A stretch of DNA of 64,000 nucleotides from a virus: IMG/VR virus record IMGVR_UViG_3300025102_000012, positions 1-64,000 of that record, one strand, 5' to 3'. The notes beneath the pieces are model-generated. The model was given only the letters and a program-made list of their open reading frames with translations. It did not search any database and was not told the DNA's origin. The position numbers and the translations under genes were made by a program. Below, piece after piece: positions 137 through 22,580 of the stretch (positions are counted from its first letter, which is position 1; each line of letters begins with the position of its first letter).

Positions 137-2200
137 ATGAATTCTGTTTATGCATATTGGTTTGAACTCATAAAGAATCAGCCTGTGCAAGAACTTACTT
201 TATTGACTACTTTATTTAGCGATAAACAAACAAATAATCTAGTTGAGGAATTAAATCGTAGAGAACCTGTTGAAAAACTAAAAGGAATACTATCTAGAAT
301 AAAATCGGGACAACTCACTGTTGAGACTCTTATGGCGAAGTTACCAAATCCTGCCGTATCTAAAGAAGAAATAGAACAAAGACTACAAAAAGTTCTAGAG
401 GCGGCAAGATTTGAAACACTAGGTTCATTAGGGCAACTTTTGGATAAGGTTATATCTCTAAAAACTAACATAGATGACCCTAATACAGAAACTACTGGGA
501 ATGATGTCTCGGAATTAAGTAAGTTAATAGATAAGATTTCTAAAATTCCTAAACCATCTCCCGCAACTCTAAGAAAAGATAAGATTACAAGAGAAAAATT
601 GGCCTATTTTAATAGAGTTATTAGGCCAAAACAAAAATTCACTATAAAATTTAAAGAAATTCCAGAAAACAGACAAGAGTTTGAGGAAAAAATAAATGAA
701 ATTGCTCAAATTGTTGTAAAAGAAGAAAAAGTAGGAGAAGAAACTATCACCACCTACTTAGGAAGGCTAGAGAATGATGAATTTATCACTTCTTTTGACA
801 ATCAAAAAGATTTTTTGCAGTTTTTATCCGAAAGACCCGAAGAAAAGCAAAAGTTTTCCGAAAATGTTGGAAAGTTTTCTCCGGATTTTGGAAATGTTAG
901 AGTTTCACGAAGCAAAAAGAAGAAAAGAAAGCAAATGAGTGAAGAAAAACTACAAGATTTGGTAATTAGAGGAGTAGAATTCCAAACTGCTGAAATAAAC
1001 AGTTTTTCCGGCATTAAAAATTATTTACAAGCGTTAGAAAAAATACCTTACTCTATAACTCCATTTTTACCAACCACTTTAGACTCCGGAAGTGTTGGTG
1101 GTCTTAGCGTTAGACAGAATCTTCCCTCTACTTTCTTTTTGACAAGACAATCAGTAGCAAATTTAGGAACTAGAGGGACTAGAAGTGTAGTTATGAATCC
1201 TTATGCTACTGTTTTGTTACAAAGCACTTATTCTAGTAGTAATTGGTTCCAAACTTTCTTTGCCGATGTAAGAAAGTCACAAGTTATAGGTAGAAACTTA
1301 GCAAACTTGATGGTTTTAGACGATATTTATGATACACTGAAACTAAACAAAGAAAGTCAATATGGTTTTACTAAGGATATGTTTGGCGAAATTAATTTAG
1401 ATGATAGAGAATCCGGAAGGAAAAAATTAAAGGAAATAATATTTACAGATAAGACTCTTAAGAGAGAATTCGATACCCAATCTAGACCAATTACACAAAA
1501 TGCAGGATTATATTTACTAACAGATTTTACAAAAAAAGAAGCAAAAGATTTAGAGAAAAATTGGAATGATGACTTAGAATTTGATTATGGTGAACTAGAA
1601 TTAGTTTACAAAGACTTTCAAGGAGTAACAGATGAGAAAAATTCAAAATATGTTACTATATTAGTGGACGGTAGGGCTAAAAATCCTGAAGAAATTGAAA
1701 GAATTATAAAACGAGAGAATTTAAAAATAGAATTGACTAAGTTAAGACAATTAGCAATAAACTCTAGTAAAGATGAAGAGATAGGAAATAAGTTTGTAGA
1801 ATATATATTATCTTTACCTACTGAAGAAATCACACAAATATTGACTACTTCTGCAAATAATTCTTCTAGTTTCCAAGACAAACTCAACCCTAAAAATAGT
1901 TTAATATTTTTATCTACTATAAGCGATAGATTAGTAGGAGAAAATAAAGGATTAGTAGCAGATGCGTTGGAGAAAGTTACAAAAACAGAAACTTTTGTAG
2001 AAAAACAAGAAATACTAACCGAATTGAATGATAAAATGCCTTCTTTTCTACAGTATTTAAAAAATAAAGTATTTGAAGCGTTCCAATCAGAACTTGATGA
2101 CTTTGCCAAAAACTACATTAGGGTGTCGGGTTCAAGCAAAGACAAGGCAATTAGGGCTATTGAGGTATTCAAGAGGTTTAATCTTTTAAAGGGTGATTAA
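137..2200 (+). CDS. Large hypothetical protein, candidate internal virion protein (N-terminal WFELIK motif)
   Basis: Long ORF; AGGTGA SD before ATG137; charged, helical composition. Confidence 0.7.
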   Translation: MNSVYAYWFELIKNQPVQELTLLTTLFSDKQTNNLVEELNRREPVEKLKGILSRIKSGQLTVETLMAKLPNPAVSKEEIEQRLQKVLEAARFETLGSLGQLLDKVISLKTNIDDPNTETTGNDVSELSKLIDKISKIPKPSPATLRKDKITREKLAYFNRVIRPKQKFTIKFKEIPENRQEFEEKINEIAQIVVKEEKVGEETITTYLGRLENDEFITSFDNQKDFLQFLSERPEEKQKFSENVGKFSPDFGNVRVSRSKKKKRKQMSEEKLQDLVIRGVEFQTAEINSFSGIKNYLQALEKIPYSITPFLPTTLDSGSVGGLSVRQNLPSTFFLTRQSVANLGTRGTRSVVMNPYATVLLQSTYSSSNWFQTFFADVRKSQVIGRNLANLMVLDDIYDTLKLNKESQYGFTKDMFGEINLDDRESGRKKLKEIIFTDKTLKREFDTQSRPITQNAGLYLLTDFTKKEAKDLEKNWNDDLEFDYGELELVYKDFQGVTDEKNSKYVTILVDGRAKNPEEIERIIKRENLKIELTKLRQLAINSSKDEEIGNKFVEYILSLPTEEITQILTTSANNSSSFQDKLNPKNSLIFLSTISDRLVGENKGLVADALEKVTKTETFVEKQEILTELNDKMPSFLQYLKNKVFEAFQSELDDFAKNYIRVSGSSKDKAIRAIEVFKRFNLLKGD

Positions 2201-2201
2201 A

Positions 2202-4646: not shown

Positions 4647-4650
4647 TATT

Positions 4651-5013
4651 GTGACTTGGTTTGACATAATCAAAAACCGTAGGCAACGGCCTAAAGATAT
4701 AGAAGCCGGAGAGCGCTTTGATAGGGCTAGATTCAATTACCGAGGTAGACCCGGTGATGTCGCTAATCGTGGCGGTTCTGTAGATACTAGCAAACCAATT
4801 CAAGAATCATTAGACTCATTAAATTATAGACCTCAATTTGGTAGTTTCTTTGGTTCAATTAATAGAATGGTGCCAAAACATGAGAAGTTTGCACTTAGCG
4901 ATAAAAGGAATGCATCTAAGCATAAGAACTGGGCTAATCTTTTAAGAAACTATCAAAGCGAAGTCAAACAAATGATAGTAGATTCTGAAGCGAGGGAGAA
5001 AAGTGGAAACTAA
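4651..5013 (+). CDS. Hypothetical protein with N-terminal WFDIIK motif
   Basis: AGGTGA SD, GTG start, MTWFDIIK. Confidence 0.7.
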   Translation: MTWFDIIKNRRQRPKDIEAGERFDRARFNYRGRPGDVANRGGSVDTSKPIQESLDSLNYRPQFGSFFGSINRMVPKHEKFALSDKRNASKHKNWANLLRNYQSEVKQMIVDSEAREKSGN

Positions 5014-5518
5014 ACAAATGTCTCGTTCCTCTTTAGAAGATTTGTGGAACAAAACTTATGGAGAAGACCTACCTTCCGGAAGGCCAAAACCTGCTAAAAT
5101 GGATAGTTATTATCCTATTTCTACCATGAATGTGGCTTTAGATGAAGGTAAGCCAGTAGCGTATAGGGGATTTGGTAATATAGGAGATTATAATTTCATA
5201 GGTATGAGTTATACAATGCCCGAATATAGAAATAAAAGTATATATTCTAAATTAGAACCACCAATGCAAGGAAAGGTAATTGTCGGACTATCGCAAAGAA
5301 ACACTGGATTTAAACAAGAAGACTGGGTTAATTACTTCAAAGGAAAAGGATTCACAATTAATCCATCTGATGAAGAATTGGATGAAATGTTTGGTGAAGG
5401 CCATGAAGAAATAACTCATCATTTTATTAGATTTTATAGAAACCATGATAAAAATACATGGGCGGCTAAGAATACATCAGCAATCGCTAAATGGTGGGGA
5501 ATAGTAAAACAAAGGTGA
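5003..5518 (+). CDS. GNAT-fold acetyltransferase-like protein (C-terminal WWGIVK)
   Basis: VALDEGKPVAY beta-hairpin and SYTMPEYRNKSIYSKL resembling GNAT motif A. Confidence 0.55.
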   Translation: METKQMSRSSLEDLWNKTYGEDLPSGRPKPAKMDSYYPISTMNVALDEGKPVAYRGFGNIGDYNFIGMSYTMPEYRNKSIYSKLEPPMQGKVIVGLSQRNTGFKQEDWVNYFKGKGFTINPSDEELDEMFGEGHEEITHHFIRFYRNHDKNTWAAKNTSAIAKWWGIVKQR

Positions 5519-5522
5519 TATT

Positions 5523-5774
5523 ATGAACTGGCAAGATATATTGAAAAGAAAATCAGGTAGAAGAGGCAAGAAAGCCCGTAAGAAAAGAAAAAGAGGCGGA
5601 AAGAAGAAATCATCACCGTATGCAAATCCTAAATTAAGAGCGAGGATTGTTGCTCAAGTTAAAGCCATGAGCATTGGTGATGGTAAGGGTGCTAATGCTT
5701 CCGGTGGTTGGTCGGGTAACAAGGCTATGATTGCCGCAAAAAAATATAAAAAAGCAGGCGGCAGATACAAATGA
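5523..5774 (+). CDS. Very basic protein, DUF5872-like N-half, WQDILK leader
   Basis: YANPKLR...GGWSGNKAMIAAKKYKKAGGRYK resembles the remembered DUF5872 N-terminal consensus; K/R-rich. Confidence 0.55.
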   Translation: MNWQDILKRKSGRRGKKARKKRKRGGKKKSSPYANPKLRARIVAQVKAMSIGDGKGANASGGWSGNKAMIAAKKYKKAGGRYK

Positions 5775-6043
5775 ATTGGCGGCATGTTCTTAAAGCCAAA
5801 ACTAAGACTCAACAAAGTCTTTCGAGATGGATTAAGGAAGATTGGGGAACTCAAACAGAACATAAAGCCAAAGATAAAGGTAAAACTCCAAAGAAAGAAA
5901 AAACAAGAGGGCGTTATATGCCGAGAGCAAAATATAAAACAACCTCAAAGGGAACTTTGGATTATCAAGATAGAAAGAAAAGAAGAAGCGTAAAGGCAGG
6001 TAAAACAACTGCACCAACAGGAAAGAAGTTTAGTCAAAAGTGA
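5771..6043 (+). CDS. Basic protein, DUF5872-like C-half, WRHVLK leader
   Basis: QQSLSRWIKEDWGT...GRYMP resembles the remembered DUF5872 C-terminal consensus. Confidence 0.55.
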   Translation: MNWRHVLKAKTKTQQSLSRWIKEDWGTQTEHKAKDKGKTPKKEKTRGRYMPRAKYKTTSKGTLDYQDRKKRRSVKAGKTTAPTGKKFSQK

Positions 6044-6087
6044 TTATTATGAGTTGGAAACAAAGAAAAAACAAAGAGGATGAAAGC

Positions 6088-6468
6088 ATGACATGGAAAG
6101 ATATACTAAAATTAGACATCGAAGGATATAAGCGTTCTTATCCTTCTTTAAAGAGATTACCAGATGACGCAATAAGAGAGTTTGATAGAAGAATGAATGA
6201 CCCAATGACCAATGCAAATCGTTTAATTAGAGAATTAGAAGAAAAGTATGGAGTTGCTCGAAGACCTGCTGTTGGAAGAATGGTTAAGCAAGACATAAAA
6301 GCAAAAATACTCGCTGAAATTAAAAAAGAAGGCGGAGCATTAGGCATGAAAAACCTAAAACAATTCGGTGAAGAAGCAGAAATAAAAAGAGCCTTAGCCG
6401 AATTAGAAAAAGATGGTGATATATTTATGCATAAAGATGGAGACATTTATACTCATAAACCGAAGTGA
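6088..6468 (+). CDS. Hypothetical protein, WKDILK leader, C-terminal winged-helix-like domain
   Basis: GAGGA before ATG6088; KILAEIKKEGG...IKRALAELEKDGDI pattern. Confidence 0.6.
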   Translation: MTWKDILKLDIEGYKRSYPSLKRLPDDAIREFDRRMNDPMTNANRLIRELEEKYGVARRPAVGRMVKQDIKAKILAEIKKEGGALGMKNLKQFGEEAEIKRALAELEKDGDIFMHKDGDIYTHKPK

Positions 6469-6472
6469 TATT

Positions 6473-7285
6473 ATGACATGGACTAGTATTCTCAAACAAA
6501 CCGCATTGGTTGGTAAAGATGCTAGAAGTCCTAATATTTGGCTACATAGAAAAGCCACCACTAGAAATGTAGGTAGGCCAATGAAATCTAAACCGGAGAA
6601 TCTATCTACAATACCTATCCAAGTTCCTCAAGATAAATTTGAAGAATACTATAGTTTCCTTGCTGAATTTTATGCTGATGGTCGTTGGCAAGAGTTAGCA
6701 CAAGGGACTTTACAACAGGGCATAAACAATAGTAAAGTTAAACAAGTGCTGAAGGATTTTGAAAGAGGCAACATAAAAGTTACTAGACAATATTCGGATG
6801 AATTAGATGAGGCTATAGAAAAGCGATTAGAGAACATTATAAAATTAATGAGAGCAACTGGAGAGTTGATGAAAACTGGTAGTAGAAGTAGAATAAGAGA
6901 AGGTAGAGATTTAATTCGCTATGCTAAACAATTAGAAGAATCTTATGATAAGGGAATTTTAAAACAGGCTTCATATTATGATATTCTAAAAGTTTCATTT
7001 CTAAGTAAAAACTTCAAAATATCAAAAAAGTCCCTACTAGAAGTTGTAGAGGCTATACCGAAGAATCAAAAGTTTTCACTAAATGATATTGATTTTAGAA
7101 ATGAGTTTGCAGAAAAACTTGTTAGTAACGGGGTTAGAAGAAATAATGTAAGCATTAAGAGTTTTGAAAGTGTATATAGAAGATGGGCTATGATGACAGG
7201 TCGTAAAATACTATCAAATTCTTCATTAGTAATTGAAAATTTTAAGCCCAGTGGCGCTAAGACAAGCGAATATATTCGGGTTTGA
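6473..7285 (+). CDS. Hypothetical protein, WTSILK leader, internal YYDILK
   Basis: ATG6473 follows the upstream stop; motif at N-terminus. Confidence 0.65.
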   Translation: MTWTSILKQTALVGKDARSPNIWLHRKATTRNVGRPMKSKPENLSTIPIQVPQDKFEEYYSFLAEFYADGRWQELAQGTLQQGINNSKVKQVLKDFERGNIKVTRQYSDELDEAIEKRLENIIKLMRATGELMKTGSRSRIREGRDLIRYAKQLEESYDKGILKQASYYDILKVSFLSKNFKISKKSLLEVVEAIPKNQKFSLNDIDFRNEFAEKLVSNGVRRNNVSIKSFESVYRRWAMMTGRKILSNSSLVIENFKPSGAKTSEYIRV

Positions 7286-7289
7286 TAAA

Positions 7290-7865
7290 ATGGGTTGGAT
7301 GGATATTCTCAAGAGAAGAAAGTGGCAAGGCACACTTTCTAGTAAGAAAAAAGAAATACTTGAGAGAACTCCAAAAATAAAAATAAATATTCCTAAACTA
7401 AGTTATCCACAAGAAGAAACAGAAATACCTGCCATATTAAAAATAATGAAAGATAAAAAACTTAACTCAAAGCAAATGAAAGATGCAGACCTTAAGCCGG
7501 AAAAAGAGATGTTTGATATTGTCGGTGCAGATAAAGAAGACTATGAAGATTTAATTAAAGATATTAATTATTATGCCATGTCATTAAAAATGAAATACCA
7601 AAGACCAAGACCCCATCAAATAAGTAATAAAATCAAATCCACTAAAACAACTACAGACGATACTCCTGCTTTTCCTAGTGGTCACTCAATGGCCGCACAT
7701 GGTTTAGAAATAGCATTAGGTAAGAAATTCCCAAATAAGAAGAAAGAGTTAAAACAAATGGCTGATAGAATCTCACTATCTAGGGTGCAAATGGGTAGTC
7801 ATTATCCAAGCGATATAGATGCAGGAAATAAATTAGGATATTTAATAGGTGATGCGTATGAGTAA
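7290..7865 (+). CDS. PAP2-superfamily phosphatase (acid phosphatase/haloperoxidase fold), WMDILK leader
   Basis: All three PAP2 motifs: KMKYQRPRP, FPSGH, SRVQMGSHYPSD. Confidence 0.85.
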   Translation: MGWMDILKRRKWQGTLSSKKKEILERTPKIKINIPKLSYPQEETEIPAILKIMKDKKLNSKQMKDADLKPEKEMFDIVGADKEDYEDLIKDINYYAMSLKMKYQRPRPHQISNKIKSTKTTTDDTPAFPSGHSMAAHGLEIALGKKFPNKKKELKQMADRISLSRVQMGSHYPSDIDAGNKLGYLIGDAYE

Positions 7866-8196
7866 CTGGATGAATATTCTCAAAAAGAAAAAGAAACACC
7901 CTGCATTAAAGAGAGCAGGTGTTAGTGGTTTTAGTAAACCAAAGAGAACTCCAAAGCACAAAACCAAATCACATATTGTTGTTGTCAAAGATGGTGATAA
8001 AGTCAAAACTATTAGGTTCGGACAACAAGGAGTTAAAACAAACCAAACAGAAGGGCAACGAAGACAGTTTGAATCAAGACATAAAGAAAATATCAAAAGA
8101 GGTAAAATGTCTGCGGCTTATTGGGCTAATAAAGTAAAATGGAATCGAAAGAAAACCAAAGAAAAGAAAAACAAAAAGTGGCGGAAGGGAAGTTAA
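7858..8196 (+). CDS. Basic viral protein (DUF5754/DUF6321-like), WMNILK leader
   Basis: KTIRFGQQG...RRQFESRH...SAAYWANKVKW pattern; AGGTGA SD. Confidence 0.55.
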   Translation: MSNWMNILKKKKKHPALKRAGVSGFSKPKRTPKHKTKSHIVVVKDGDKVKTIRFGQQGVKTNQTEGQRRQFESRHKENIKRGKMSAAYWANKVKWNRKKTKEKKNKKWRKGS

Positions 8197-8948
8197 TGAA
8201 TTGGAAAGATATACTCAAAGTGGATAATGTCATTTTTGACCCTAAACAAAACGCTAGTGCTTTCTATGACCCGGGTACTAAAGAAATAACTTTGAATCTT
8301 GGTAATTTTCCCTATAAAGAAGGAGATTCTGAAGAAAAAGTGTTTGCTGATTTAGATTTGATTGTCACCCATGAAGCGGCACATAAAGCAGTTGATTCAG
8401 TTCTAGAAGAGAAGATGAATTCATTCGTAAGTGATTTAGGGAACCACATAGTAGACACATTGAATAGAAAAGAAGGTTCAACTAATAGGTTGATTGATAC
8501 GGGAATGAGAATGATGGAAATGATTGCTGTAGATGAAGCCTATGCTTATGCTACTGGTGCAACTACTCAAAAAAAGCCAAAAATCGCTGTTATGGAATCT
8601 ACTGTTGATTCTTTTTTAAGTGCTGTTCATGATATATTAGACCAAATAGCCGAACAAATTAAAAGCCACCGACAAGAATATGGTGAAGAGTTAACTAAAA
8701 ATTCATTAAAAATATTAAGTGCGATAGCGAGAGACTTACAAGAGAAAACATTAGCCGGTAGTGCTATAATAGAACAATCTGTTTCTGAATTTGTTTCTAG
8801 AATGAATAATATGTCGGATGAAGAAAAATATGAATATACTACACGAACTGCTAAAAAAATTAAAAGGGTGCCTTTATCGGAAGCAATAAGAACAAAAGTA
8901 TTGGATTATTTAGACAATAGTTCTAAATTAAATTTGCGTAGGGGATAA
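8196..8948 (+). CDS. Zincin-like (HEXXH) metallopeptidase-domain protein, WKDILK leader
   Basis: AFYDP..KEITL strand, VTHEAAH, downstream DEAYA. Confidence 0.6.
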   Translation: MNWKDILKVDNVIFDPKQNASAFYDPGTKEITLNLGNFPYKEGDSEEKVFADLDLIVTHEAAHKAVDSVLEEKMNSFVSDLGNHIVDTLNRKEGSTNRLIDTGMRMMEMIAVDEAYAYATGATTQKKPKIAVMESTVDSFLSAVHDILDQIAEQIKSHRQEYGEELTKNSLKILSAIARDLQEKTLAGSAIIEQSVSEFVSRMNNMSDEEKYEYTTRTAKKIKRVPLSEAIRTKVLDYLDNSSKLNLRRG

Positions 8949-8999: not shown

Positions 9000-9812
9000 A
9001 TGCTAAAGTGGTGGGGTGTCATTAGGAAAGGTGAAGTCAAATACCTTACTAATAAGCAAATAAGAGATAAAGGCTTAAATGTTCCTATAGGTGCTATTGC
9101 ACAATATATTCACCCTACTATTCTTAATAATTACAATGACTCTACTCACGAAGGAGTGATTAGAGTTTATCTTACTGAAATAAAAAATGCAGTAGATATG
9201 ATGGCTCGTAAGAAAGAACTCGACTACAAAAAAGGCGGGGAAGAAATAAAAATAACTGATGAACAGAAAGAAAAAGCAATAGAAGAAATAATTAAGAGAA
9301 CCATATCTCATGAAGCAGGGCATGAAGGATATTTTTATGCTAGGGATTTAGACACACCGAATATATTTAGAGAGTATGATGAGAAACCCGAAAGACAGGA
9401 ATATGCCGCATATACTTCGGAGTTTCCAAACAACCCATATCTAAAATTAAAGAACTACCTAAAACATCCTGCAACAACTGACCCATCAAAGGCTAAATTT
9501 GTTGATAGTTATTTTGGTAAAATAGGTGCAGGAGTCGTTCCATTCAAAACAAATACTAAGGCTATGGCACAATTAGTCGGATGGGTAGATTCTTTAAAGG
9601 TGAAGTCTAAAGGAACTGTTAAGCCATTATCTCTAAAAGATAAGAATAAAATAGTTGCATTTGAGTTAGGTCTTAGAGCAAGAAATGAAGGCATGAGAGG
9701 TAGTGAATTTAGACAACCAGTAATAAAAAATGTAAACGATGCCTATGGAAGATATGGCATACAAAACTTATCAAAAGAAAATAAAACTTTTTTAAAGAGA
9801 ATATTTGGGTGA
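9000..9812 (+). CDS. Zincin-like (HEXXH) protein, WWGVIRK leader
   Basis: ISHEAGH with downstream QEYAAY. Confidence 0.55.
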   Translation: MLKWWGVIRKGEVKYLTNKQIRDKGLNVPIGAIAQYIHPTILNNYNDSTHEGVIRVYLTEIKNAVDMMARKKELDYKKGGEEIKITDEQKEKAIEEIIKRTISHEAGHEGYFYARDLDTPNIFREYDEKPERQEYAAYTSEFPNNPYLKLKNYLKHPATTDPSKAKFVDSYFGKIGAGVVPFKTNTKAMAQLVGWVDSLKVKSKGTVKPLSLKDKNKIVAFELGLRARNEGMRGSEFRQPVIKNVNDAYGRYGIQNLSKENKTFLKRIFG

Positions 9813-9816
9813 TAGC

Positions 9817-12614: not shown

Positions 12615-13502
12615 CTGGATATAGAAATTTATGAAGTTGGGCCGAGAGATGGCTTACAAAATAGTAATTTTAAAGTATCTACTAATAATAAAGTTAATTT
12701 AATTAATCATTTATACCAAGCGGGATTAAAAAATATGGAAATAACTTCTTTTGTTCATCCTAAAAGAGTACCTAATATGGCTGATGCTGAAGAGGTATTT
12801 CTAAACACAAAAGAGTTAGCAGATTTTGGAGTCTTGATTCCAAATCAACGAGGATTTGAAAGGGCTAAAGCACTAGGAGCAAAAAAATTCAATGTCTTTT
12901 TTTCACCATCAAATGAATTCAACTATAGGAATTTAGGTAAAACTTTAGAAGAAACTTATATCGGGTTAGAAAAAATGCTAGAAGATGAAGATAGAAAAAA
13001 CATTAGAGCATATATTTCTTGTGCTTTTGGTTGCCCATTTGAAGGATTGCCTTCTGATTACAAACTTAAAGACAGTATAGAAAAAGCAAGTAATTTAGCA
13101 GAAGATGTTGTTTTATGTGACACTATTGGAGCGGCATATCCTAGTAAAGTAACTAGAACATTAGAACTAACAAAAAGGATTGATAGTAAAATATCTTTAC
13201 ATTTACATGAAAAAAAGACAGGGAGCAACAATATATTTTCTAATGTTAAATCAGCCTTAGACTGGGGAATAAACTCATTCGATTCTAGTATAAACGGTTT
13301 AGGTGGGTGTCCTTTTATGCCCGATAGTGGAAGTAATTTATCTACAAACCAATTAATAAATTGGGCAAACAATAACGGATATGATACAGGTATTGACCTT
13401 AAGGAACTAACTTATGCAACAGAACTAGTTAGAAGTTTAGAAAAAAGACGACAAAAATTCCCCGAAGGATTCATAACAGAAACAACATCTGTAGCAGAAT
13501 AA
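12615..13502 (+). CDS. hmgL: Hydroxymethylglutaryl-CoA lyase (DRE-TIM), putative auxiliary metabolic gene; CTG start
   Basis: In-frame IYEVGPRDGLQN upstream of the tracked ATG; TSFVHPK.VP.MADA, AFGCPFEG, LCDTIG, HLH, FDSSINGLGGCPF. Confidence 0.88.
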   Translation: MDIEIYEVGPRDGLQNSNFKVSTNNKVNLINHLYQAGLKNMEITSFVHPKRVPNMADAEEVFLNTKELADFGVLIPNQRGFERAKALGAKKFNVFFSPSNEFNYRNLGKTLEETYIGLEKMLEDEDRKNIRAYISCAFGCPFEGLPSDYKLKDSIEKASNLAEDVVLCDTIGAAYPSKVTRTLELTKRIDSKISLHLHEKKTGSNNIFSNVKSALDWGINSFDSSINGLGGCPFMPDSGSNLSTNQLINWANNNGYDTGIDLKELTYATELVRSLEKRRQKFPEGFITETTSVAE

Positions 13503-13515: not shown

Positions 13516-15165
13516 ATGGTAGAAAAGAAGAGAGGTTTTAGCATAACTAATTTATTTAGAAGGTCAACACCAAAACCTGCTGATAGAGAAATATACAATA
13601 TTGGTATTCAAGAGAAGCAACGAAGTAGTTTAATGACCGCTCCTCTTCTCTATCATTTAGTTCAAAATTCAGTTATTACTAGAACTTGTGTTACTCAACT
13701 TAAGCAAGAAATATTCCGTAGAGGATATGTTTGGGAAAAAGCATATGAAGCATATTGCATGGATTGTAAAAAAGAACATCAAAGACCAGTTTCAGAATGC
13801 TCTAGATGTGGAAGCACTAATCTAAGAAATCCGGATGTAAAACAATTAGAATATGCTGAGAAATTTATAGAAGGCTACATCAATAAATCTGAGCAACTAT
13901 TCATTGATGTTCTAAAAGAACTAGAAGACGATTTAAATATTATGGATGATGCTTACATTGTTTTAGTAAAAGAATATTTTATTGACGGTAATCAAAAAAT
14001 TCGCATGCATAGAATAAAAGAAGTATATAGAGGCGACCCAGTAACTATGGCTATATACTCGGATGAAGTGGGGCAAAGAGGAACTAAGGGGTTTACTTGC
14101 GTAAATCATAGAGGGCAACTAAGAACAGAACCGCATGAAAAATGTGAGGAATGTGGAAGTTCCCTCTACCCCGTCCACTATGTAAATAGGGTTGGAGGAA
14201 AAGACCAGTATTTCTTAAAGGGAGAAGTATTGCATTTTAGCAAATATAGTCCTTCTAGGCTATATGGTATGTCTCCGGTCATTACTCTTTACAATCACAT
14301 TACTACTCTTCTTGCTATGGAAAACTATGTAAATTCTTCTTATACTAAGAGCCGAATGCCTAGAGGACTATTAGCAGTTCAAACTAGAAATATGGATTCA
14401 ATGCGTTCTTTTTGGCGTTCAGTAAAAGAGAAAATGGAAACTGACCCTCACTTTATTCCTGTAATGGGAATAGAAGCAGAAGGAGGAAAGGGTTCTGTTG
14501 AGTGGATTAAATTTATGGATAGTCTAAAAGAAATGGATTATGTTTCTGTTAAAGACGATTTGAGAGATAGAATATCAGCGTTCTATGGTGTAAGTAAAGT
14601 CTTTATGGCTGATAATACTACAAGTGGTGGATTAAATAATGAAGGTATGCAAATACTTGTAACTAATAGAGCAGTTCAAATGGCACAGAATGTTTACAAC
14701 AATTATGTATTTCCATTCTTAATTAAACAATTTGGCATTACTGATTGGGTATTGAAACTTCCTCCAAGCGAAGAAGAAGATGAAATAGCAGTAATAAGAA
14801 AGAGAGAACTGGAAGTAGGTATTGCAGGTCAAATCAAGAATTTAGGATTTGATGTTGAAATGGATGAAGATGGTAACTTTACTTTCTCTAAACCTGAACC
14901 GAAAGAACCACAAGAAGGTGAATCTCCTAAAGGAGACGAATCAGTGGAATTAGACCCACTAGCAGGTTCTAATTTAGACCAAAGAGATTTAGATGAACAA
15001 ACAAGAATGTTTGCAGAAGGTGGCGGTAGTAAACCACAAGAGAACCCGCCAACATCAAGAAGCAAGCCGAGTATGAGTGTCGCCCCCGATAAAAGATTAA
15101 CAGGATTACCAGTAGATGCAGGTAATCAAAATGTAGATAGACGAAATGATAGGAGGATAGGTTGA
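13516..15165 (+). CDS. Portal protein with zinc-ribbon insertions
   Basis: Position after TerL; EVLHFSKYSP..LYGMSPV, MPRGLL, RISAFYGVS motifs of HK97-type portals; CxxC pairs. Confidence 0.85.
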   Translation: MVEKKRGFSITNLFRRSTPKPADREIYNIGIQEKQRSSLMTAPLLYHLVQNSVITRTCVTQLKQEIFRRGYVWEKAYEAYCMDCKKEHQRPVSECSRCGSTNLRNPDVKQLEYAEKFIEGYINKSEQLFIDVLKELEDDLNIMDDAYIVLVKEYFIDGNQKIRMHRIKEVYRGDPVTMAIYSDEVGQRGTKGFTCVNHRGQLRTEPHEKCEECGSSLYPVHYVNRVGGKDQYFLKGEVLHFSKYSPSRLYGMSPVITLYNHITTLLAMENYVNSSYTKSRMPRGLLAVQTRNMDSMRSFWRSVKEKMETDPHFIPVMGIEAEGGKGSVEWIKFMDSLKEMDYVSVKDDLRDRISAFYGVSKVFMADNTTSGGLNNEGMQILVTNRAVQMAQNVYNNYVFPFLIKQFGITDWVLKLPPSEEEDEIAVIRKRELEVGIAGQIKNLGFDVEMDEDGNFTFSKPEPKEPQEGESPKGDESVELDPLAGSNLDQRDLDEQTRMFAEGGGSKPQENPPTSRSKPSMSVAPDKRLTGLPVDAGNQNVDRRNDRRIG

Positions 15166-15392
15166 TGACAGAAGATTTGAGACAAAAGGAAATAAGACTG
15201 AAGAAAGAATTAGCGAAAGTAAAGGCTATTAATGCCAATGCTGATACTAAGATAAAAAAGAATAGGGATTTATCATTAGGGGGATTACCTCCCGATACTT
15301 CTCATAAACCAACTCCAGCATCTAATGATATTCCCGATGTTATATCCTTACCGCCTAAAAGAAGAGGAAGAAAAGAAAACATACCGTTCTGA
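15165..15392 (+). CDS. Hypothetical protein
   Basis: GGAGG SD; coupled to the portal stop. Confidence 0.55.
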   Translation: MTEDLRQKEIRLKKELAKVKAINANADTKIKKNRDLSLGGLPPDTSHKPTPASNDIPDVISLPPKRRGRKENIPF

Positions 15393-15401
15393 GGAAGATA
15401 T

Positions 15402-17210
15402 ATGTACATAGAATTATCTAAAGAAAACTCCTTTGATTCTTTAATATCAAAAATGTCTTTAGACAAAAATACAACGAAGTTAATTGGTAAAGCCACAAAG
15501 GAAGAAATAATTAAATCTCTTTTAGATAATATGAATAATTCTAACATGGCAACATATAGAAAACTTATCGCTAAAGCAGAAAAAGAAATAGATGAAGAAG
15601 AACAAGCCTTCCAAACACAATTAGGAGGAAAAGGTTCACAAAGATATGGAGTAGGAGAATCAAAAGTTGAAGAGGATTCTTTAGAGGAAGATAAAGATAA
15701 AGAAGTTTCTTCCACAAAGTTTGAATATAACCTATTCTTAAAGGCTAGAAAGAAATATGAAATTCTAGAAAATTCATTGAGTTCATTAAAAGATTTATCT
15801 AATCAAGTACAGTTGGAAAAAAATCCAGAACTGTCTTCCGGTTATGAGTTGTTTAATACAGCCAGTTATGATAACTTAGTTAGAAAGAACAGGAATAAAT
15901 CTGATGTTATTTTAAACGCTATGAGTATATTAGAAAGGAATAACAACGCTTTAGTAGAATCCGATAGAAACATTACAGATGGTAAGTTAGTTGCTCCTAC
16001 ACCTCCTAAAAGATTAGATAAAGAAACTCAAGAGTTTGTTTCTAGAAATAAGAAAAAAGATATTGATGTTGCTAATATACAAAAAGAACTACTAACTTTA
16101 ATGGAGAAAAGTTATCCTGTCGAAGGGGAAGAAGATATGTCCTTTGCAGATGTGTATAAGAATCTACATATTAATCAATTTGATAGAACACCTAGAGCAA
16201 GAAGAAGCCCGAAAAAATATTTACAAGCAATAGAAGCGGCTAAGAAAAGCCTAGAAGATAATAGGCCTAAAAATTTTATAGCGAAAATGAATAAATTAAA
16301 ACAATTAATAGCAGAATTAAAAACACTATATGAATTAGAAATACCTCTTATAGAAAGAATTGCTACATTAGAATCGTATGAAGATAAAGAAAATAGAAAA
16401 GAATTAATTGAATTTGCTAACAATAAAATAAAAGAAAGTCTAGAAGTTACTGCCGATTTAAAACCTGAAATATACGGTATAGGAGCAGAAAGTGAAGAAG
16501 TAATATTAGGAAGAAAAGGTATTGATGTTAGAAAAGATAAATTGATGGAAAGAATATTATCTAGTGAAATGACAAAAGCGAAGGAAGAACTATCTAAACT
16601 ACAAAAGACAATAGATGGTATTCAAGAATTTGAAGAATCAATAAAAGAAATAGTGGTATTAATGTCTACAGTAAATCGAATGGATAAAAATATATTTACC
16701 ACAGATAAACAAAAGATAGACAAATTAAAAAATCAATACAAAATTCTTACAGAAAAGTATTTTGAACAAGAACCCGAAGGAACAACTATTAATCCTAATA
16801 GGGTGGAATTTGATAATAGATTAACAGAACTAAATACTCAAATTAAAGATTTAGAAAGTGAAAATGCCCGATACTTTTCAGTTGTTTCTAAATTAAATGA
16901 AAGTTATAATATAATATTTGACAGTAAAGATGAAATGGAAAGAATAAATCAAAACCTAAGAAAATTGAAAAATTCAGGTGAATTGGATGCTGTTAAACTA
17001 GCACAAGATATTAAACTCTCATTGTTAAGAAAAGATACTTCCGATTTAAGAAGTGAAGATTACAAACTAAGATTAACTTCTTTAACAGGAGAAGAGTTAG
17101 AAGAAACTTTATCCAATGCAGATAAGACAATAGACATACTAAGTAAATTAGATATAAATGTAAAGGAAGTAAAACAAACACTAGAGTTAATGAGGAGTGA
17201 AGCAGTATGA
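15402..17210 (+). CDS. Long coiled-coil hypothetical protein
   Basis: 602 aa, E/K-rich heptads, GAGGA SD. Confidence 0.65.
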   Translation: MYIELSKENSFDSLISKMSLDKNTTKLIGKATKEEIIKSLLDNMNNSNMATYRKLIAKAEKEIDEEEQAFQTQLGGKGSQRYGVGESKVEEDSLEEDKDKEVSSTKFEYNLFLKARKKYEILENSLSSLKDLSNQVQLEKNPELSSGYELFNTASYDNLVRKNRNKSDVILNAMSILERNNNALVESDRNITDGKLVAPTPPKRLDKETQEFVSRNKKKDIDVANIQKELLTLMEKSYPVEGEEDMSFADVYKNLHINQFDRTPRARRSPKKYLQAIEAAKKSLEDNRPKNFIAKMNKLKQLIAELKTLYELEIPLIERIATLESYEDKENRKELIEFANNKIKESLEVTADLKPEIYGIGAESEEVILGRKGIDVRKDKLMERILSSEMTKAKEELSKLQKTIDGIQEFEESIKEIVVLMSTVNRMDKNIFTTDKQKIDKLKNQYKILTEKYFEQEPEGTTINPNRVEFDNRLTELNTQIKDLESENARYFSVVSKLNESYNIIFDSKDEMERINQNLRKLKNSGELDAVKLAQDIKLSLLRKDTSDLRSEDYKLRLTSLTGEELEETLSNADKTIDILSKLDINVKEVKQTLELMRSEAV

Positions 17211-17569
17211 CATGGGATTTTTATGGAGAAGGAAAGGATTTTATCCTTAAAGAAAAGAAACAGGTTCCTAAAAGAGTTTTAGATTCTTTAGACGGAAAGG
17301 GAAAGAAGAAACTAAAAAAGACACTTCAAGCGGCTGAACCAACAGAATTTTTTGGTCAAGATTTTACTAAGTTAGGGGACTTAGTTAGTTTGCTAAAAGA
17401 ACTAGATTTGATGAAATCAGATAAAAAACTAAACAAAAAGGTTAAGTCTATGGATGAAAGGAATATTGATATAGTCGCTACCGCTACGAAACTTCGTAAG
17501 GAGTATGAATTACTCTATCGTCAATTAAGAGACTTAATTTATCCCAAAGGACAGGAGGAGAAAAAATGA
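17207..17569 (+). CDS. Hypothetical head-module protein
   Basis: Coupled ORF with GAGGAG SD; DFILK near N-terminus. Confidence 0.65.
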   Translation: MTWDFYGEGKDFILKEKKQVPKRVLDSLDGKGKKKLKKTLQAAEPTEFFGQDFTKLGDLVSLLKELDLMKSDKKLNKKVKSMDERNIDIVATATKLRKEYELLYRQLRDLIYPKGQEEKK

Positions 17570-17808
17570 GTAAAAAAAATACAATTAATGAAGAACTACT
17601 TGCGATTATTAAAGCCCTTAGTGCTAAAATAGAAAGCCTAGAGAAAACAGTATATTCTCAAGATAACATACTTATGAAGTCCGGCTTTGTTGTTACTGAA
17701 ACTCCAGTACCGACTATTGACAACAACATTGGCTCTACAATAACTGATGTTTCAAATATGGATTGGTCTGATATTCACAAGATGGTAGAAAGCGCAGGTG
17801 GTCAATAA
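17566..17808 (+). CDS. Small scaffold-like protein (coiled coil + C-terminal MDWSDIHKMV)
   Basis: C-terminus nearly identical to the protease/scaffold C-terminus MEWNDIHKMV. Confidence 0.6.
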   Translation: MSKKNTINEELLAIIKALSAKIESLEKTVYSQDNILMKSGFVVTETPVPTIDNNIGSTITDVSNMDWSDIHKMVESAGGQ

Positions 17809-18254
17809 TGCCGGAAAGAGTAACAAAAGAAGAAAGAATGATTAGCCTTGCTATCGAAAAGGCTAGAAGTGCTAAAGAATTATTACATCAATCGTTACAA
17901 GGTAATAGATTACCGGATGAAAAAGATGACCGTATGGAAAAAGTGAAGGTAAAACGCCCGAAGGCTCAAAAAGCAGACAAAGTAAAAAACCAAACTAGGA
18001 AAAAAGATGGTTACGGTCTAGGTGGAGAAGAAACTCATTTCAAAAAAGCAATAAAACAATTTGAAAGTGATGCTGAAGAGTTTTATAGAAAAAAATTAGC
18101 AGAAATGCAAACCTTACCCAATAAACAGGTTCAAAGTGATTTTGAATATGAATTAGATAAAATCGCTCAACAAAAAGGTGGACGGCCACTAACATACGCA
18201 GATGTAAACGGTGCTAGTATTAGTGTTTCAAAAACCGGATATAGCCGCAATTGA
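17808..18254 (+). CDS. Hypothetical protein
   Basis: Coupled ORF, 148 aa. Confidence 0.6.
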   Translation: MPERVTKEERMISLAIEKARSAKELLHQSLQGNRLPDEKDDRMEKVKVKRPKAQKADKVKNQTRKKDGYGLGGEETHFKKAIKQFESDAEEFYRKKLAEMQTLPNKQVQSDFEYELDKIAQQKGGRPLTYADVNGASISVSKTGYSRN

Positions 18255-18264
18255 GGAATGCTGA

Positions 18265-21200
18265 ATGAAACTCAGCAGTATTGAGAAGGACAAGCAACCT
18301 TCACAAGAAATACTTCGTTTGTTTGAAAAGGTTAGAGTAGCCTATCTATCTGCTAGAAATGACCCTTCCGAGTATGGCGGAAGATGGAGAAGCGCCATAG
18401 AATTAATTAAAGATTCAGCAGAAGAAATGGACGCTACTAGTAATGAAATGAAAGATTACTTGGATTATGATTTATTAGAATCCGAAGAAGGAAATGACCC
18501 TACTTCTTTACAAGCAAAAAAAATATTTGAATCAATAAAAATGCTAAGGTATTCCTCGGATTTAGTTCAAGACCCTTTTGCTAAAAGATTCAAAGGAAAA
18601 GTTTTGGAGGCGCTTTTAGAAAATCCAGATGTTATGGTTAAGTTTGTTCACTATGCTCTTAGAGAAGATGATAATATATTGCCCGATGAACTTTATGCAA
18701 TAAAAGATATGTCTAGTGATAATATTACTCTTGGTCTTAAGGGTCTTGACCTAGAATCAGATGATGTGGCACTATATATTATTGAGCATTATGGAGACGG
18801 AAAAGACTCCAAATCAGTTGAAAAGAAAGTTAAGTCTGCTTTAGATATGTTAGAACTATTGATGTTATCTAGATATGAACAATCTGATTTAGATGAACTA
18901 ATAGAAATAGATGGGTTTGAAACAGAAAAGAAAGAAAAATCATTTAACATTAAAAAGATAATAAAATCTGAAGAAGAAAAATCATTGACAGATTTTATTG
19001 TTCCGAATAAACCAATGTATAGAATATTTGATATAGAAGATATTAACGAATTAAAAGGCTTTAGCGGTGATTGGTTTGTTCAAGAAAAATATGATGGAAT
19101 GAGAATACAGTTACAAAAAATAGATAATAATGTAAAAATATTTTCATACAATAAGAAAGATATTACAGAAAAGTGTAAAGAAATAGTTAAAGAATTAAAA
19201 GAAAAACAATTCGGTAGTTGTATTTTAGATGCCGAATTAATTCTATTTGATGAGGATGAACCATTACATAGGGCAGATACCATAGCCCATGTATTTAAAA
19301 ATAAATATCCTGATGCTAAACTCAAATGTCATGTCTTCGATATTATGCGACACGATGAACAAAACCTATTAGATGAAGAATTGAGTGATAGGATGACTAT
19401 AATGTTTAATAATTATTCTATGCATTCTTCGGATGCTTTGAATTTTCCTTCAAAGAAAGATACTAGACAAGCAGATAATTTAAAAGATGTAGAAGAGTAT
19501 TCTAAAGACATTATGGAGATGCCAACTTCGGAAGGAGTAGTAATAAAAGACTCTACATCTACTTATTATTTAGGAACAAGAAAGAATCCAAAATGGATTA
19601 AGTGGAAGAAGTTTGTAGATTTAGATGTAATAGTATTAGATAAATCTAAAACTAAAAGTAACTTATATTCTTATACTCTAGGAATATCTACTACCGAAGA
19701 AGAGGGTAAATTCATAGAAGATTATCAAGGTAAAAAATACATGAATGTAGGAAAGGCATTGAATACAAAAATTAATGTTGATATTGGTAGTATAATCAGG
19801 GTTAAGGTAGATGAAGTGAAAAGGGCAGGGGATAGATATACTCTATTCTCGGCAAAGGTAATTGAGATACCGGAAGTTACTGAACCGGATAAAGAAGTAA
19901 CTCTAGAACTATTGGCACAAGACACAAAAAAATCTCTTAATTATTCTATTGATGCTTTGAAGAAAGGTATTGTTTTGACTGACCATATTCATGGTGAAAC
20001 TACTGTTATTGCTAAATCTACTATGGATGGATTTACTGTTTATGGTTTTGAAAAGAATAACTTAATGTCTAAGAATGCTATTAAGGATTTAGATATGTGG
20101 AAACAACAAGTAGAAGAAATAATGAAAACTAAACAAAGTTTGCTTACCAATGCTATTTTTCAATTCTTAAAATTAAATGGAGCCAAATCACCAAAGTCTG
20201 TTCATAATTATTTAGTTGAAAAGCACCCTTCATTATATGAAGATGTATTAGAAAGTGAATTTTCTGAACTAAAGGATTGGTCGGAAAGAAGAGATGGTAT
20301 TGAATTTAGTGATGATAAGTTATTCTCAAATCCAAATAAAATAATGCTCAATGATTCTATTAAAAAAAGACTTAATGATTCTATCAAAAAATCACAAAAG
20401 TTAGAGATGTTATCTAGGTTCATGGATGAAAAAAAAACGCCAATGACTAATGTTCCAGTAACCATTGAAAGACAGAAAGAAATACCTATGGTATCTATGA
20501 TTGGTAGTGGTTCGGAAGACAAATGTTGTAATGAACTAAAGCAAAAAATAATTGGCTTTATTGAAAAACGCATTATGGGTAGTTTTGACGATGTGTTTAA
20601 TATGCTATTTGACATAACTGCTGACTCGGAAGAAGATAGGGACTATTTATTTACTGCCTACCTAGATGGAATTTCGCTTGAGCGTGAATCGGAAGAAGAC
20701 AGAATTACTGAATCATCAAAAGAAAAGATAAAGCACTATACTGCGGCTTATTATGGTGAGGCTTTATTAAATATGCCGTGTGATTCGTTGGTAAATAAAA
20801 TTAGAGAAAAACCATACTTTACTCAAATGACAACTTTTATTGAAGAATATGATAAGTGTAGCACAGGATTTGATTCGGATTTTTCCGATAAATACGCCAT
20901 GTTAAAGTCATATAAAACTCCCGAAGAATATAGAGAAGGAGAATTCAAAATCTATATGAGAAAAGATAACAACCTAAATATTGTAATGAAGTTAGGTGAT
21001 GAATCAATCAATTGGTTAGTAGATATACAAGACGAAGAGGAGTTGTTTGATATGTTTGGTAAAGCGGGCAAATACCCTGCTGAAGTTGCTAAGACTATTG
21101 ACAAAGAAAAGACAATTGATACAGGTAAAGTCGAATTAGGAGTTCAAAGACATGGCTATCATGAATATTTCTTAGAAGGAAATAAGTTTGAAACTAAACT

Positions 21201-21345
21201 ACATATTAGAGTTCTTCCCGTAAAAGATAAGAAAATGTGGTTAGCATGGACTGGATATGAACAAAAACCAGTAGACCAAGAAGAAGATAAAGGTATTTGG
21301 AATATATATGAAGATAAATTCAATTATATTGATATTCCCCGTTAA
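18265..21345 (+). CDS. lig: ATP-dependent DNA ligase with large N- and C-terminal extensions
   Basis: Motif I QEKYDGMR, III LDAELI, IIIa VFDIM, IV EGVVIKD, V WIKWK; OB-fold region follows. Confidence 0.88.
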   Translation: MKLSSIEKDKQPSQEILRLFEKVRVAYLSARNDPSEYGGRWRSAIELIKDSAEEMDATSNEMKDYLDYDLLESEEGNDPTSLQAKKIFESIKMLRYSSDLVQDPFAKRFKGKVLEALLENPDVMVKFVHYALREDDNILPDELYAIKDMSSDNITLGLKGLDLESDDVALYIIEHYGDGKDSKSVEKKVKSALDMLELLMLSRYEQSDLDELIEIDGFETEKKEKSFNIKKIIKSEEEKSLTDFIVPNKPMYRIFDIEDINELKGFSGDWFVQEKYDGMRIQLQKIDNNVKIFSYNKKDITEKCKEIVKELKEKQFGSCILDAELILFDEDEPLHRADTIAHVFKNKYPDAKLKCHVFDIMRHDEQNLLDEELSDRMTIMFNNYSMHSSDALNFPSKKDTRQADNLKDVEEYSKDIMEMPTSEGVVIKDSTSTYYLGTRKNPKWIKWKKFVDLDVIVLDKSKTKSNLYSYTLGISTTEEEGKFIEDYQGKKYMNVGKALNTKINVDIGSIIRVKVDEVKRAGDRYTLFSAKVIEIPEVTEPDKEVTLELLAQDTKKSLNYSIDALKKGIVLTDHIHGETTVIAKSTMDGFTVYGFEKNNLMSKNAIKDLDMWKQQVEEIMKTKQSLLTNAIFQFLKLNGAKSPKSVHNYLVEKHPSLYEDVLESEFSELKDWSERRDGIEFSDDKLFSNPNKIMLNDSIKKRLNDSIKKSQKLEMLSRFMDEKKTPMTNVPVTIERQKEIPMVSMIGSGSEDKCCNELKQKIIGFIEKRIMGSFDDVFNMLFDITADSEEDRDYLFTAYLDGISLERESEEDRITESSKEKIKHYTAAYYGEALLNMPCDSLVNKIREKPYFTQMTTFIEEYDKCSTGFDSDFSDKYAMLKSYKTPEEYREGEFKIYMRKDNNLNIVMKLGDESINWLVDIQDEEELFDMFGKAGKYPAEVAKTIDKEKTIDTGKVELGVQRHGYHEYFLEGNKFETKLHIRVLPVKDKKMWLAWTGYEQKPVDQEEDKGIWNIYEDKFNYIDIPR
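20347..20394 (+). repeat. 24-bp imperfect tandem duplication (LNDSIKK x2)
   Basis: ctcaatgattctattaaaaaaaga / cttaatgattctatcaaaaaatca. Confidence 0.8.
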
Positions 21346-21392
21346 TGGGCTGTTCTTTAAATAGTCGGTTTAACAAGAGGGTGTTGAGGAGA

Positions 21393-22580
21393 ATGAGTTC
21401 CGCTACTGTGGCAAGACCATCTAATGATTTCAGGATTCTCAAAAGTCAAGACGATTTAATGATTGGAGGATATGCAAGCATAGAAATCGTTGATAAACAA
21501 AATGACTTAATTACACTTAAAGCACTACAAGATGCAGTAACAAAATATATGGAGAACCCGAAGTTTAGAAATGTAATGACTAATCATTCTAATGTTCAAG
21601 TCGGGGAAGTAGTAAAATCGTATAGAGACAAAAGCGGAAAAATATGGAAAACCGAAGTTGATGATGTAGGATTCTTTGTAGTGATTAAATTAAGAGACGA
21701 CATAGAAAAAGCCAAAGAAATTAATAGAGGCGTAAGAAAAGGTTCATTGAGGAGTTTTAGTATAGGGGGACAGGCAATTCAAAAAGTAAAGAAAAGCCAC
21801 CCCGAATTAGGACAATACAATGAAATAAGCAAACTAGAGTTACATGAGGTTACGATTTGTGAAAAAGGAATTAACCCGGAAGCAAGGTTTGATATATTGA
21901 AACAAGAAAAGGTAAATAATATGAGTAAATTAGAAAAAGCGCTTGCAGAATTGGACACACTTATGAGTGAGGTCAATTCTCTAAGAAAAGAAGAAATGGA
22001 GAGCATGGATATGAAAGAAGAAGAAAAAATAATGGACGAAAAGATGGATGATGGAGAAATGGCTCCACTAGAAGAGGAAAAAGGCGATTATCAAGATGAT
22101 GAAATGAAAGCCGTTGTTTCTACTCTAGATGGTGCAGGTGTCGAAATCGGAGAACCGGCAGATAGAATAGTTATTGATAATGGAAAACCTAAAGCAACTG
22201 ATATGCCAGTTGTAAAGGCTTTTGATTCAAATGAATTCGATACTCTTGATTTGTCAAATGAAAACATTGAGAAGGCTTACGAGGCTTTCCGTCAAGAGCA
22301 ACTTGAGAAGTTGGCTTACGACAATCTTCAAAAGACATTTGAAACTAGATTTTCAAGTGAAATATCTCTAAGAGAAGACAGGCTAGCAAAGTCGCAATAT
22401 GATGCCGCTAGTGAAATCGCTTCTCTAAAAGAAGAATTCACACAATTAAGAAAGTCTTTAACTGCTGAAAAGGAAACAATCCTAAAAACAGCAGAAGACA
22501 GTAAAGTTACACTCCCATCTTTGGATGAAATTGCAGAAATGGAATGGAATGACATTCACAAAATGGTAGGGGGTTATTAA
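21393..22580 (+). CDS. Prohead (maturation) protease fused to acidic coiled-coil scaffold
   Basis: IGGYAS..IVDKQND, MTNH, SFSIGG, EVTIC..GINPEA (HK97-type); GAGGAG SD before ATG21393; directly upstream of MCP. Confidence 0.88.
   Translation: MSSATVARPSNDFRILKSQDDLMIGGYASIEIVDKQNDLITLKALQDAVTKYMENPKFRNVMTNHSNVQVGEVVKSYRDKSGKIWKTEVDDVGFFVVIKLRDDIEKAKEINRGVRKGSLRSFSIGGQAIQKVKKSHPELGQYNEISKLELHEVTICEKGINPEARFDILKQEKVNNMSKLEKALAELDTLMSEVNSLRKEEMESMDMKEEEKIMDEKMDDGEMAPLEEEKGDYQDDEMKAVVSTLDGAGVEIGEPADRIVIDNGKPKATDMPVVKAFDSNEFDTLDLSNENIEKAYEAFRQEQLEKLAYDNLQKTFETRFSSEISLREDRLAKSQYDAASEIASLKEEFTQLRKSLTAEKETILKTAEDSKVTLPSLDEIAEMEWNDIHKMVGGY

Follow-up and report, generated by a model that had tools for sequence, protein, structure and literature searches.

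An octapeptide tag shared by unrelated accessory proteins of a magrovirus-like archaeal virus: a candidate address-and-cut leader for the prohead

The IMG/VR virus record IMGVR_UViG_3300025102_000012 is a single contig of 92,808 bp, and the window analysed here is its first 64 kb (64,000 nucleotides). We describe a short peptide, hereafter the tag, which is carried by otherwise unrelated proteins of this virus, mostly at their starts, and which may be a leader that loads them into the assembling head. With the start codon included, the consensus of the tag is M-[STN]-W-x-[DENS]-[IV]-[LI]-K and its core form is M-x-W-x-[DE]-I-L-K. The two ends of the contig overlap by 138 bp (window 1-138 versus genome 92671-92808), with 137 of the 138 positions identical, and the 92.8-kb assembly is complete, either circular or terminally redundant. 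Because the ends overlap, the tagged genes form one contiguous array, which begins at 87.5 kb, crosses the origin and stops at 9.8 kb, at the large terminase gene. The genes of the window were identified by Pfam and PHROG searches, and the part of the array that lies in the window is as follows.

128-2200, + strand: open reading frame (ORF) of 690 residues with a degenerate, displaced tag, AYWFELIK, 10 residues in (W at 158)
4651-5013, + strand: tagged ORF of 120 residues with a GTG start, V(GTG)TWFDIIK; no Pfam or PHROG match
5003-5518, + strand: weakly GNAT-like ORF of 171 residues (Acetyltransf_1, E = 0.0076, below the Pfam cut-off) with a C-terminal tag-like KWWGIVKQR, before the stop codon, at 5489-5509
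5523-5774, + strand: very basic tagged ORF of 83 residues (isoelectric point, pI, 11.8), MNWQDILK; the phrog_17747 profile aligns only past the tag
5771-6043, + strand: basic tagged ORF of 90 residues, MNWRHVLK; the phrog_14910 profile begins at residue 9, just past the tag
6088-6468, + strand: tagged ORF of 126 residues, MTWKDILK, from the largest tagged family, which has 57 unique members
6473-7285, + strand: tagged ORF of 270 residues, MTWTSILK
7290-7865, + strand: tagged soluble PAP2-type phosphatase of 191 residues, MGWMDILK; PAP2 E = 5.7e-13, residues 98-187
7858-8196, + strand: basic tagged ORF of 112 residues, MSNWMNILK (W is residue 4); phrog_7595 E = 3.5e-29, profile from residue 10
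8196-8948, + strand: acidic tagged ORF of 250 residues, MNWKDILK; no family match in the Pfam and PHROG searches
9000-9812, + strand: ORF of 270 residues immediately before the large terminase; weak tag variant MLKWWGVIRK

All the motif copies listed in the initial annotation are present, including two C-terminal ones, MDWSDIHKMV (17758) and MEWNDIHKMV (22539), which are taken up below. It had linked about 11 proteins by this motif; the motif is real, but the set comprises about 20 tagged genes, with ten further N-terminal copies at 87.6-92.6 kb, outside the window. It had also placed the motifs at ORF starts, apart from that of ORF 5003-5518, which it put at the C-terminus; eight ORFs do start with clear copies, whereas the copies in the ORFs beginning at 128 (the motif given for position 137) and 9000 and at the C-terminus of ORF 5003-5518 are weak variants. 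ORF 128-2200 is homologous to a family of 645-811 residues starting MNWFDVVK, and the BLAST alignment begins by pairing W3 with W11; the weak variant of ORF 9000-9812 is conserved in three orthologues. As to the enzymes named among the tagged proteins, the phosphatase stands, with intact KX6RP, PSGH and SRX5HX3D catalytic motifs and no membrane segment. The acetyltransferase does match Acetyltransf_1, but at a score below the cut-off, and the supposed peptidases come down to a faint DUF6782 match on a relative.

The tag is concentrated in the array. It starts 18 of the 27 array ORFs versus none of about 117 others, by a crude gene call in which the untagged set includes all 68 minus-strand ORFs, and it is absent from the tail genes and the minus-strand replication genes of the 92.8-kb genome, as had been noted at first reading. 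The strict regular expression W.DI[LIH]K gives seven matches, each in a real + strand ORF, versus 0.07 expected from shuffles. No pairwise BLAST similarity was found among the tagged-protein bodies of this genome at E <= 0.01. Among the 595 distinct copies found in relatives, Leu is encoded by all six of its codons, Ile by ATA, ATT and ATC, and Lys by AAA and AAG, in near-background proportions; since the synonymous codons vary, selection acts at the level of the peptide. GGTGAT-type ribosome-binding sites lie just before the motif-bearing start codons. Three simpler origins were considered and rejected: a secretion or membrane signal peptide (Sec, Tat or class III), as there is no hydrophobic core and the tag is followed by charged, often poly-Lys/Arg, stretches; a DNA-level motif, as the codons vary; and paralogy, as the bodies are unrelated.

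The same tag is widespread in related viruses. We compared 320 related IMG/VR loci in three clades, namely clade A (the clade of the window, 160 loci), clade B (L161-240) and clade C (L241-320), the latter two being defined by proteases 43-51% identical to that of the window; clade D (L322-401) has a P0010-like protease of about 46% identity. In clade A, 505 N-terminal copies of the tag lie on the gene strand and a single one on the opposite strand. With a slightly looser expression, the 320 loci of clades A-C hold 644 N-terminal, 47 internal and 8 C-terminal copies, about 700 in all, every one of them on the gene strand. Complete genomes of these clades have 6-16 strict DNA-pattern matches, nearly all on one strand, versus 0-1 for a reversed-pattern control. 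The tagged proteins of clade A amount to 449 unique sequences in 168 BLAST families, 105 of them singletons, with a median length of 117 residues and a pI of 4.6-11.2 (5th-95th percentile); a membrane-like segment is found in 2 of the 449, which bears out the description of the tag as a portable label on unrelated soluble proteins. Clades B and C carry the same tag, for instance as (V)SWFDTIK at the start of the clade B orthologues of the phosphatase, and in these two clades tagged genes also lie within the head module, in the intervals from portal to protease and from capsid protein to tail genes. The clade D leader differs, reading (M)-x-A-F-[DE]-x-A-W-x-[VLI]-L-K, and is found on the protease strand at N-termini and at internal junctions of long ORFs; in one clade D genome (G004, L396-L401) it occurs, for example, at 3.9-8.9 kb and 91-101 kb on the minus strand.

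The genes and relatives given in this paragraph fit a magrovirus-like, archaeal tailed virus; magroviruses are viruses of Marine Group II archaea (PMC5434244). With its terminase, portal, protease and tail genes, the genome is that of a complete tailed virus. Among cultured viruses, the closest by capsid protein are the haloarchaeal HVTV-1 and HCTV-1, both tailed, at about 26% identity, together with methanogen viruses. Proteases closely related to that of the window are encoded on more than 589 marine IMG/VR contigs, and many among those listed are 90-100 kb long, while no relatives of protein P0013 were found in IMG/VR. Neither the tag nor the tail motif described below was found in HVTV-1; therefore, HVTV-1 virion proteomics cannot be transferred to the present virus.

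The tag is, as judged from the homologues of the tagged proteins, an add-on to the protein bodies. Homologues were searched with tag-less bodies, since families picked by their tag would bias any comparison of conservation between tag and body. In these searches, orthologues retain the tag, with ATG, GTG or TTG as start codon and the W at residue 2, 3 or 4; the orthologues of ORF 5771-6043, for example, keep it, some from GTG starts. In the tagged proteins, the phrog_7595 and phrog_14910 profiles begin only at residue 9-10. Roseophage SIO1, CRP phages, Celeribacter phage P12053L (gp37) and cyanophages encode small hypothetical proteins that share 50-70% identity with the body of ORF 7858-8196, and these marine bacteriophage versions are without the tag. 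The P12053L homologue begins with MPSKKKDPRL, at precisely the point at which the tag of the magrovirus protein stops. The sharing of this body, which is also found at L404:4013-4282, is unusually close for archaeal and bacterial viruses.

Tags are also found inside longer proteins. In homologues of the GNAT-like ORF 5003-5518 (401-485 residues), KKWFSILK or KGWWNIIK stands internally near residue 170, ahead of a second module whose sequence shares 44% identity with an N-tagged protein that stands alone. Among the 22 distinct modules downstream of internal tags, nine have non-self stand-alone tagged homologues that align from just past their own tag. In clade D, one ORF of 883 residues has two internal tags and another of 479 residues also has a tag at an internal junction. 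The tag thus marks module boundaries, which is compatible with a cut site. In some relatives (the L172:3971 and L111:6133 regions), a basic module of about 35 residues (PIRKVKGGYKWG..AAAYASGYKKS) precedes the internal tag, and in L111 the basic module, the tag and a PAP2 body share one reading frame.

Downstream of the array lies the head module, where the features that bear on the tag are the following.

9805-11238: T4-type large terminase (Pfam/PHROG)
13516-15165: portal (Pfam/PHROG)
17207-17569, + strand: head-module ORF of 120 residues, MTWDFYGEGKDFILK, a tag variant with an insertion
17566-17808, + strand: ORF of 80 residues with a scaffold-type tail, MDWSDIHKMV, at 17758-17787
21345-22580, + strand: prohead protease with a scaffold-like C-terminal half, 411 residues; Peptidase_S78 at residues 39-194; tail MEWNDIHKMV at 22539-22568
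22582-23922, + strand: major capsid protein, HVTV-1-like; phrog_24667 and SU10_MCP matches

Orthologues of ORF 17207-17569 in clades B and C start canonically, with MTWQEILK and MTWFEVIK. The protease ORF matches PF04586 (E = 6e-9, residues 39-194) as well as head maturation protease PHROGs, and it abuts the capsid protein gene; it is an S78 prohead protease with a fused scaffold, the C-terminal extension being about 215 residues long.

At the N-terminus of the capsid protein, a conserved helix (YINTIADLEAATYG) leads into a Gly-rich stretch of variable sequence, after which comes an invariant L-L-K with A, Q or S as the next residue. In clades A-D this is the sole conserved hydrophobic-hydrophobic-Lys in the protein, 25-35 residues in. 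With a slash after the Lys, the site reads NQLLK/AQG in clade A, NALLK/AAG in clade B, NSLLK/SAG or, in one variant, SDILK/SGG in clade C, and SELLK/ADS in clade D; in the window it is NMLLK/TAG at 22660-22668, with the invariant L28-K29. The HK97 S78 protease cleaves its capsid protein gp5 after Lys103, and the L-L-K is a candidate maturation cut for the HK97-type protease of the present virus. What is constant in the tag across clades A-D is W-x(1-2)-[ILV]-L-K, and the match of this constant part to the capsid L-L-K points to processing by the protease over mimicry of the scaffold. The protease ORF itself has FRILK/S at residues 31-35 (21435-21449) and FDILK/Q at residues 184-188 (21894-21908), on either side of the S78 domain. 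As further observations on this protein, TILK/T occurs at residues 379-383 of the scaffold half, and many distant protease homologues have a hydrophobic-L-K-small sequence within their first 10-30 residues. A profile search of the PDB found no relative, and an AlphaFold2 model of the capsid protein, built from a 28-sequence alignment, has a mean pLDDT (predicted local distance difference test) of 40.5, too low to place the L-L-K on the HK97 fold.

Based on the peptide-level selection, the portability, the restriction to the structural arm and head module, the solubility of the tagged proteins, the match of the tag end to the capsid site and the occurrence at module junctions, we propose that the tag is an address-and-cut leader, similar to the capsid targeting sequence (CTS) of phage T4, that loads soluble accessory proteins into the prohead. 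We give this proposal an even chance; capsid loading of the tagged proteins appears to be the best available reading of the sequences. The leader, usually N-terminal and sometimes at the junction of fused modules, would mark small, soluble, fast-changing accessory proteins as procapsid contents and bring them into the assembling prohead. There, the HK97-type (S78) prohead protease, which would be active only inside proheads, may cut after the leader Lys, at the same [ILV]-L-K site that is predicted for the N-terminus of the capsid protein. The trimmed proteins, including basic DNA binders, the PAP2 phosphatase and many of unassigned function, would stay in the head and may enter the next host cell together with the DNA. 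That the proteins are loaded, cleaved, kept in virions and delivered into the host is our inference.

Several points weigh against this proposal. First, the virus is uncultured, and both the presence of tagged proteins in virions and their cleavage are predicted from sequence alone. Second, the position of the array in this genome, ahead of the terminase where the arm begins, would also suit an early or middle operon. Third, about 20 cargo species per virion would be far above the number in T4. Fourth, the resemblance between cut sites needs caution: distant homologues also conserve FDILK, as the last element of the S78 fold, so the resemblance by itself says little, I-L-K is a common tripeptide in a Lys-rich, AT-rich proteome, and the residue after the tag Lys (P1') is not conserved. 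Fifth, some of the internal-tag fusions are possibly artefacts of assembly or frameshift. A broader form of the proposal is that magroviruses use a modular address-and-cut code, in which any protein with the octapeptide at its N-terminus, or at a junction within a polyprotein, would be loaded and trimmed, with clade dialects such as MSWxDILK and AFDxAWxVLK. At least a tenth of the genes would in that case encode exchangeable cargo that reaches the host along with the DNA. We advance this broader form more tentatively, as somewhat short of an even chance.

The tag could instead be a processing signal only, cut by the prohead protease or by some other protease, and have no addressing role, so that any entry into the head would depend on other features. 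Tags at internal module junctions suit this idea, and so does the [ILV]-L-K common to the tag, the capsid protein site and the sites flanking the protease domain. We nevertheless consider it unlikely: a propeptide of eight residues with an invariant Trp five residues before the cut, kept in more than 168 families, exceeds a minimal cut site, and the prohead protease reaches only those substrates that are already inside.

Just as unlikely, in our estimate, is a role outside the capsid, in which the motif would dock to a host or viral hub (a chaperone, the proteasome, or a replication or membrane-remodelling factor) or act as a timing degron for takeover proteins. The tagged genes are small, hypervariable and mostly unassigned in function, as the early genes of phages are; in the present genome they make up a block where the arm begins, and W-x-x-hydrophobic is a common type of docking motif. 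However, the tag is limited to the structural arm and, in clades B and C, embedded among the head genes; its sequence resembles both the capsid protein site and the scaffold tail, and no membrane or secretion features accompany it.

The scaffold tail brings up the mimicry proposed by the initial annotation, according to which the tag would copy the coat-binding tail of the scaffold and fit the pocket that this tail takes up inside the capsid protein shell; it is considered here as mimicry without processing. In clade A, the protease-scaffold and the ORF of about 80 residues both end in M-D-W-[SN]-[DE]-I-H-K-M-[VA], and the small ORF with the scaffold-type tail is conserved in clades A-D. Tails of the form M-[SD]-W-x-[DE]-[IV]-[HNE]-x-[LMA] end many distant S78 protease-scaffold fusions; therefore, the tail is old. 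The tails and tags of the four clades compare as follows.

Clade A: scaffold tail MDWSDIHKMVGG; N-terminal tag M-x-W-x-[DE]-I-L-K
Clade B: scaffold tail MSWGDIHNLARR; N-terminal tag M-x-W-x-[DE]-I-L-K
Clade C: scaffold tail MDWSDI[NH]ALVER; N-terminal tag M-x-W-x-[DE]-I-L-K
Clade D: scaffold tail MSWDEVHxLA; N-terminal tag (M)-x-A-F-[DE]-x-A-W-x-[VLI]-L-K

The part of the mimicry claim that stands is the M-x-W-x-[DE]-[IV] common to tag and tail, in register, in clades A-C. The antiquity of the tail in S78 protease-scaffold fusions also speaks for it, as does the duplication of the tail on a small protein, in the way the 80alpha scaffold shares its tail with CpmB. However, the two peptides do not covary across lineages. 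Positions 7-8 of the tag stay L-K throughout clades A-C, while the tail shifts from IHKM (A) through IHNL (B) to I[NH]AL (C), reading H-K, H-N or N-A at these positions; position 7 is consistently L in N-terminal tags and H in tails; and in clade D the tag AFDxAWxVLK and the tail MSWDEVHxLA are alike only in W-x-x-hydrophobic. A resemblance that is partial and does not track between clades argues against strict mimicry, which we regard as rather improbable. Instead, we propose that the scaffold tail is a separate, probably older docking peptide which only partly resembles the tag.

Lastly, a nucleic-acid-level element (a translation-initiation or regulatory RNA/DNA motif) or simple paralogy is most improbable: the motif does stand at start codons just past ribosome-binding sites, but positions 5-8 use all synonymous codons, internal and C-terminal copies exist, the position of the W and the start codon both vary, and the bodies are unrelated.

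Among known systems, the closest parallel to the address-and-cut leader is in T4, where the CTS is the sole common element of the internal proteins and is removed by the prohead protease (PMC3012670, PMC7411985). Like the magrovirus tag, the T4 CTS (on IPI-III, on Alt and on the polymorphic internal-protein genes of T-even phages) is a short N-terminal peptide on diverse, fast-evolving proteins (PMC3012670, PMC7411985); it loads them into the prohead core and is then cleaved off, and the proteins travel with the DNA, steps that for the magrovirus tag would be the predicted ones. As in a T4-type CTS system, a short N-terminal peptide, in the magrovirus of eight residues, is common to otherwise unrelated proteins of one virus. 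The two systems differ in that T4 gp21 cuts after Glu, while the magrovirus protease is of the HK97-type S78 family with Lys as the probable P1 residue, and in scale, with about four tagged genes in T4 versus about 20 per magrovirus genome, in more than 168 families, in an archaeal host and with junction tags in addition. We know of no sequence likeness between the tag and the T4 leader. The protease is a Peptidase_S78 and homology to the T4 CTS or to a gp21-type protease was not found, and by these comparisons the tag would be an analogue, not a homologue, of the T4 CTS.

Other systems share some of these properties. C-terminal capsid-docking tails are known from the HK97 gp4 C-terminus, from the 80alpha scaffold and SaPI1 CpmB, and from the helix-turn-helix of the P22 scaffold; among maturation proteases, a propeptide has been described for that of SPN3US (PMC7411985). 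The magrovirus parallel to 80alpha and CpmB is the M-[DS]-W-x-[DE]-[IV]-H near the C-terminus of both the protease-scaffold and the 80-residue protein, although the magrovirus tail is unrelated in sequence to the HK97 gp4, 80alpha, SaPI1 CpmB and P22 tails and, in turn, the N-terminal tag is only partly similar to the magrovirus tail, without covariation. Encapsulin cargo-loading peptides, like the tag, are short terminal peptides that direct diverse enzymes inside an HK97-fold shell; however, they are mostly C-terminal, rich in Gly, Ser and Leu and not cleaved off, they have no sequence similarity to the tag, and encapsulins are without protease, portal and DNA. The present system, a complete tailed virus with an N-terminal tag, is not of the encapsulin type. 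The anti-restriction Dar proteins that phage P1 packages and the propeptide-bearing ejection proteins of giant phages (PMC9024508, PMC7411985) resemble the tagged set as multiple accessory proteins in the head, some with N-terminal propeptides removed by the protease. However, these Dar and giant-phage propeptides are long and are not a common octapeptide, and incorporation proceeds by ordered protein-protein interactions.

Some other genes of the head module deserve mention. Between the terminase and the portal, an HMGL-like gene (HMG-CoA lyase family, 12735-13502, Pfam E = 4e-13) is a metabolic gene unusual for such a module, and between it and the terminase lies an ORF of 454 residues (11248-12612) with a weak HNH-endonuclease PHROG match (E = 4e-5, residues 286-416). 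Directly upstream of the protease, an ORF of 1026 residues (18265-21345) contains an ATP-dependent DNA ligase domain (residues 263-448, E = 9e-30); ORFs of 851-854 residues are at the equivalent position in clades B and C.

The tag is not mentioned in the magrovirus papers PMC5434244, PMC10160649 and PMC11706807, and a keyword search of the literature found no description of it. Magroviruses count among the archaeal viruses that are most abundant in the surface ocean. If the proposed role is true, the tag would be the first leader for capsid targeting or processing known from an archaeal virus, with by far the largest known repertoire of such cargo, about 20 genes per genome and hundreds of families. 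The virion-internal proteins of uncultured viruses would then be predictable from sequence. Foreign proteins could be loaded into HK97-fold shells with the same peptide as a compact tag, and the tagged proteins would be candidates for takeover of Poseidoniales-type hosts or for countering their defences.

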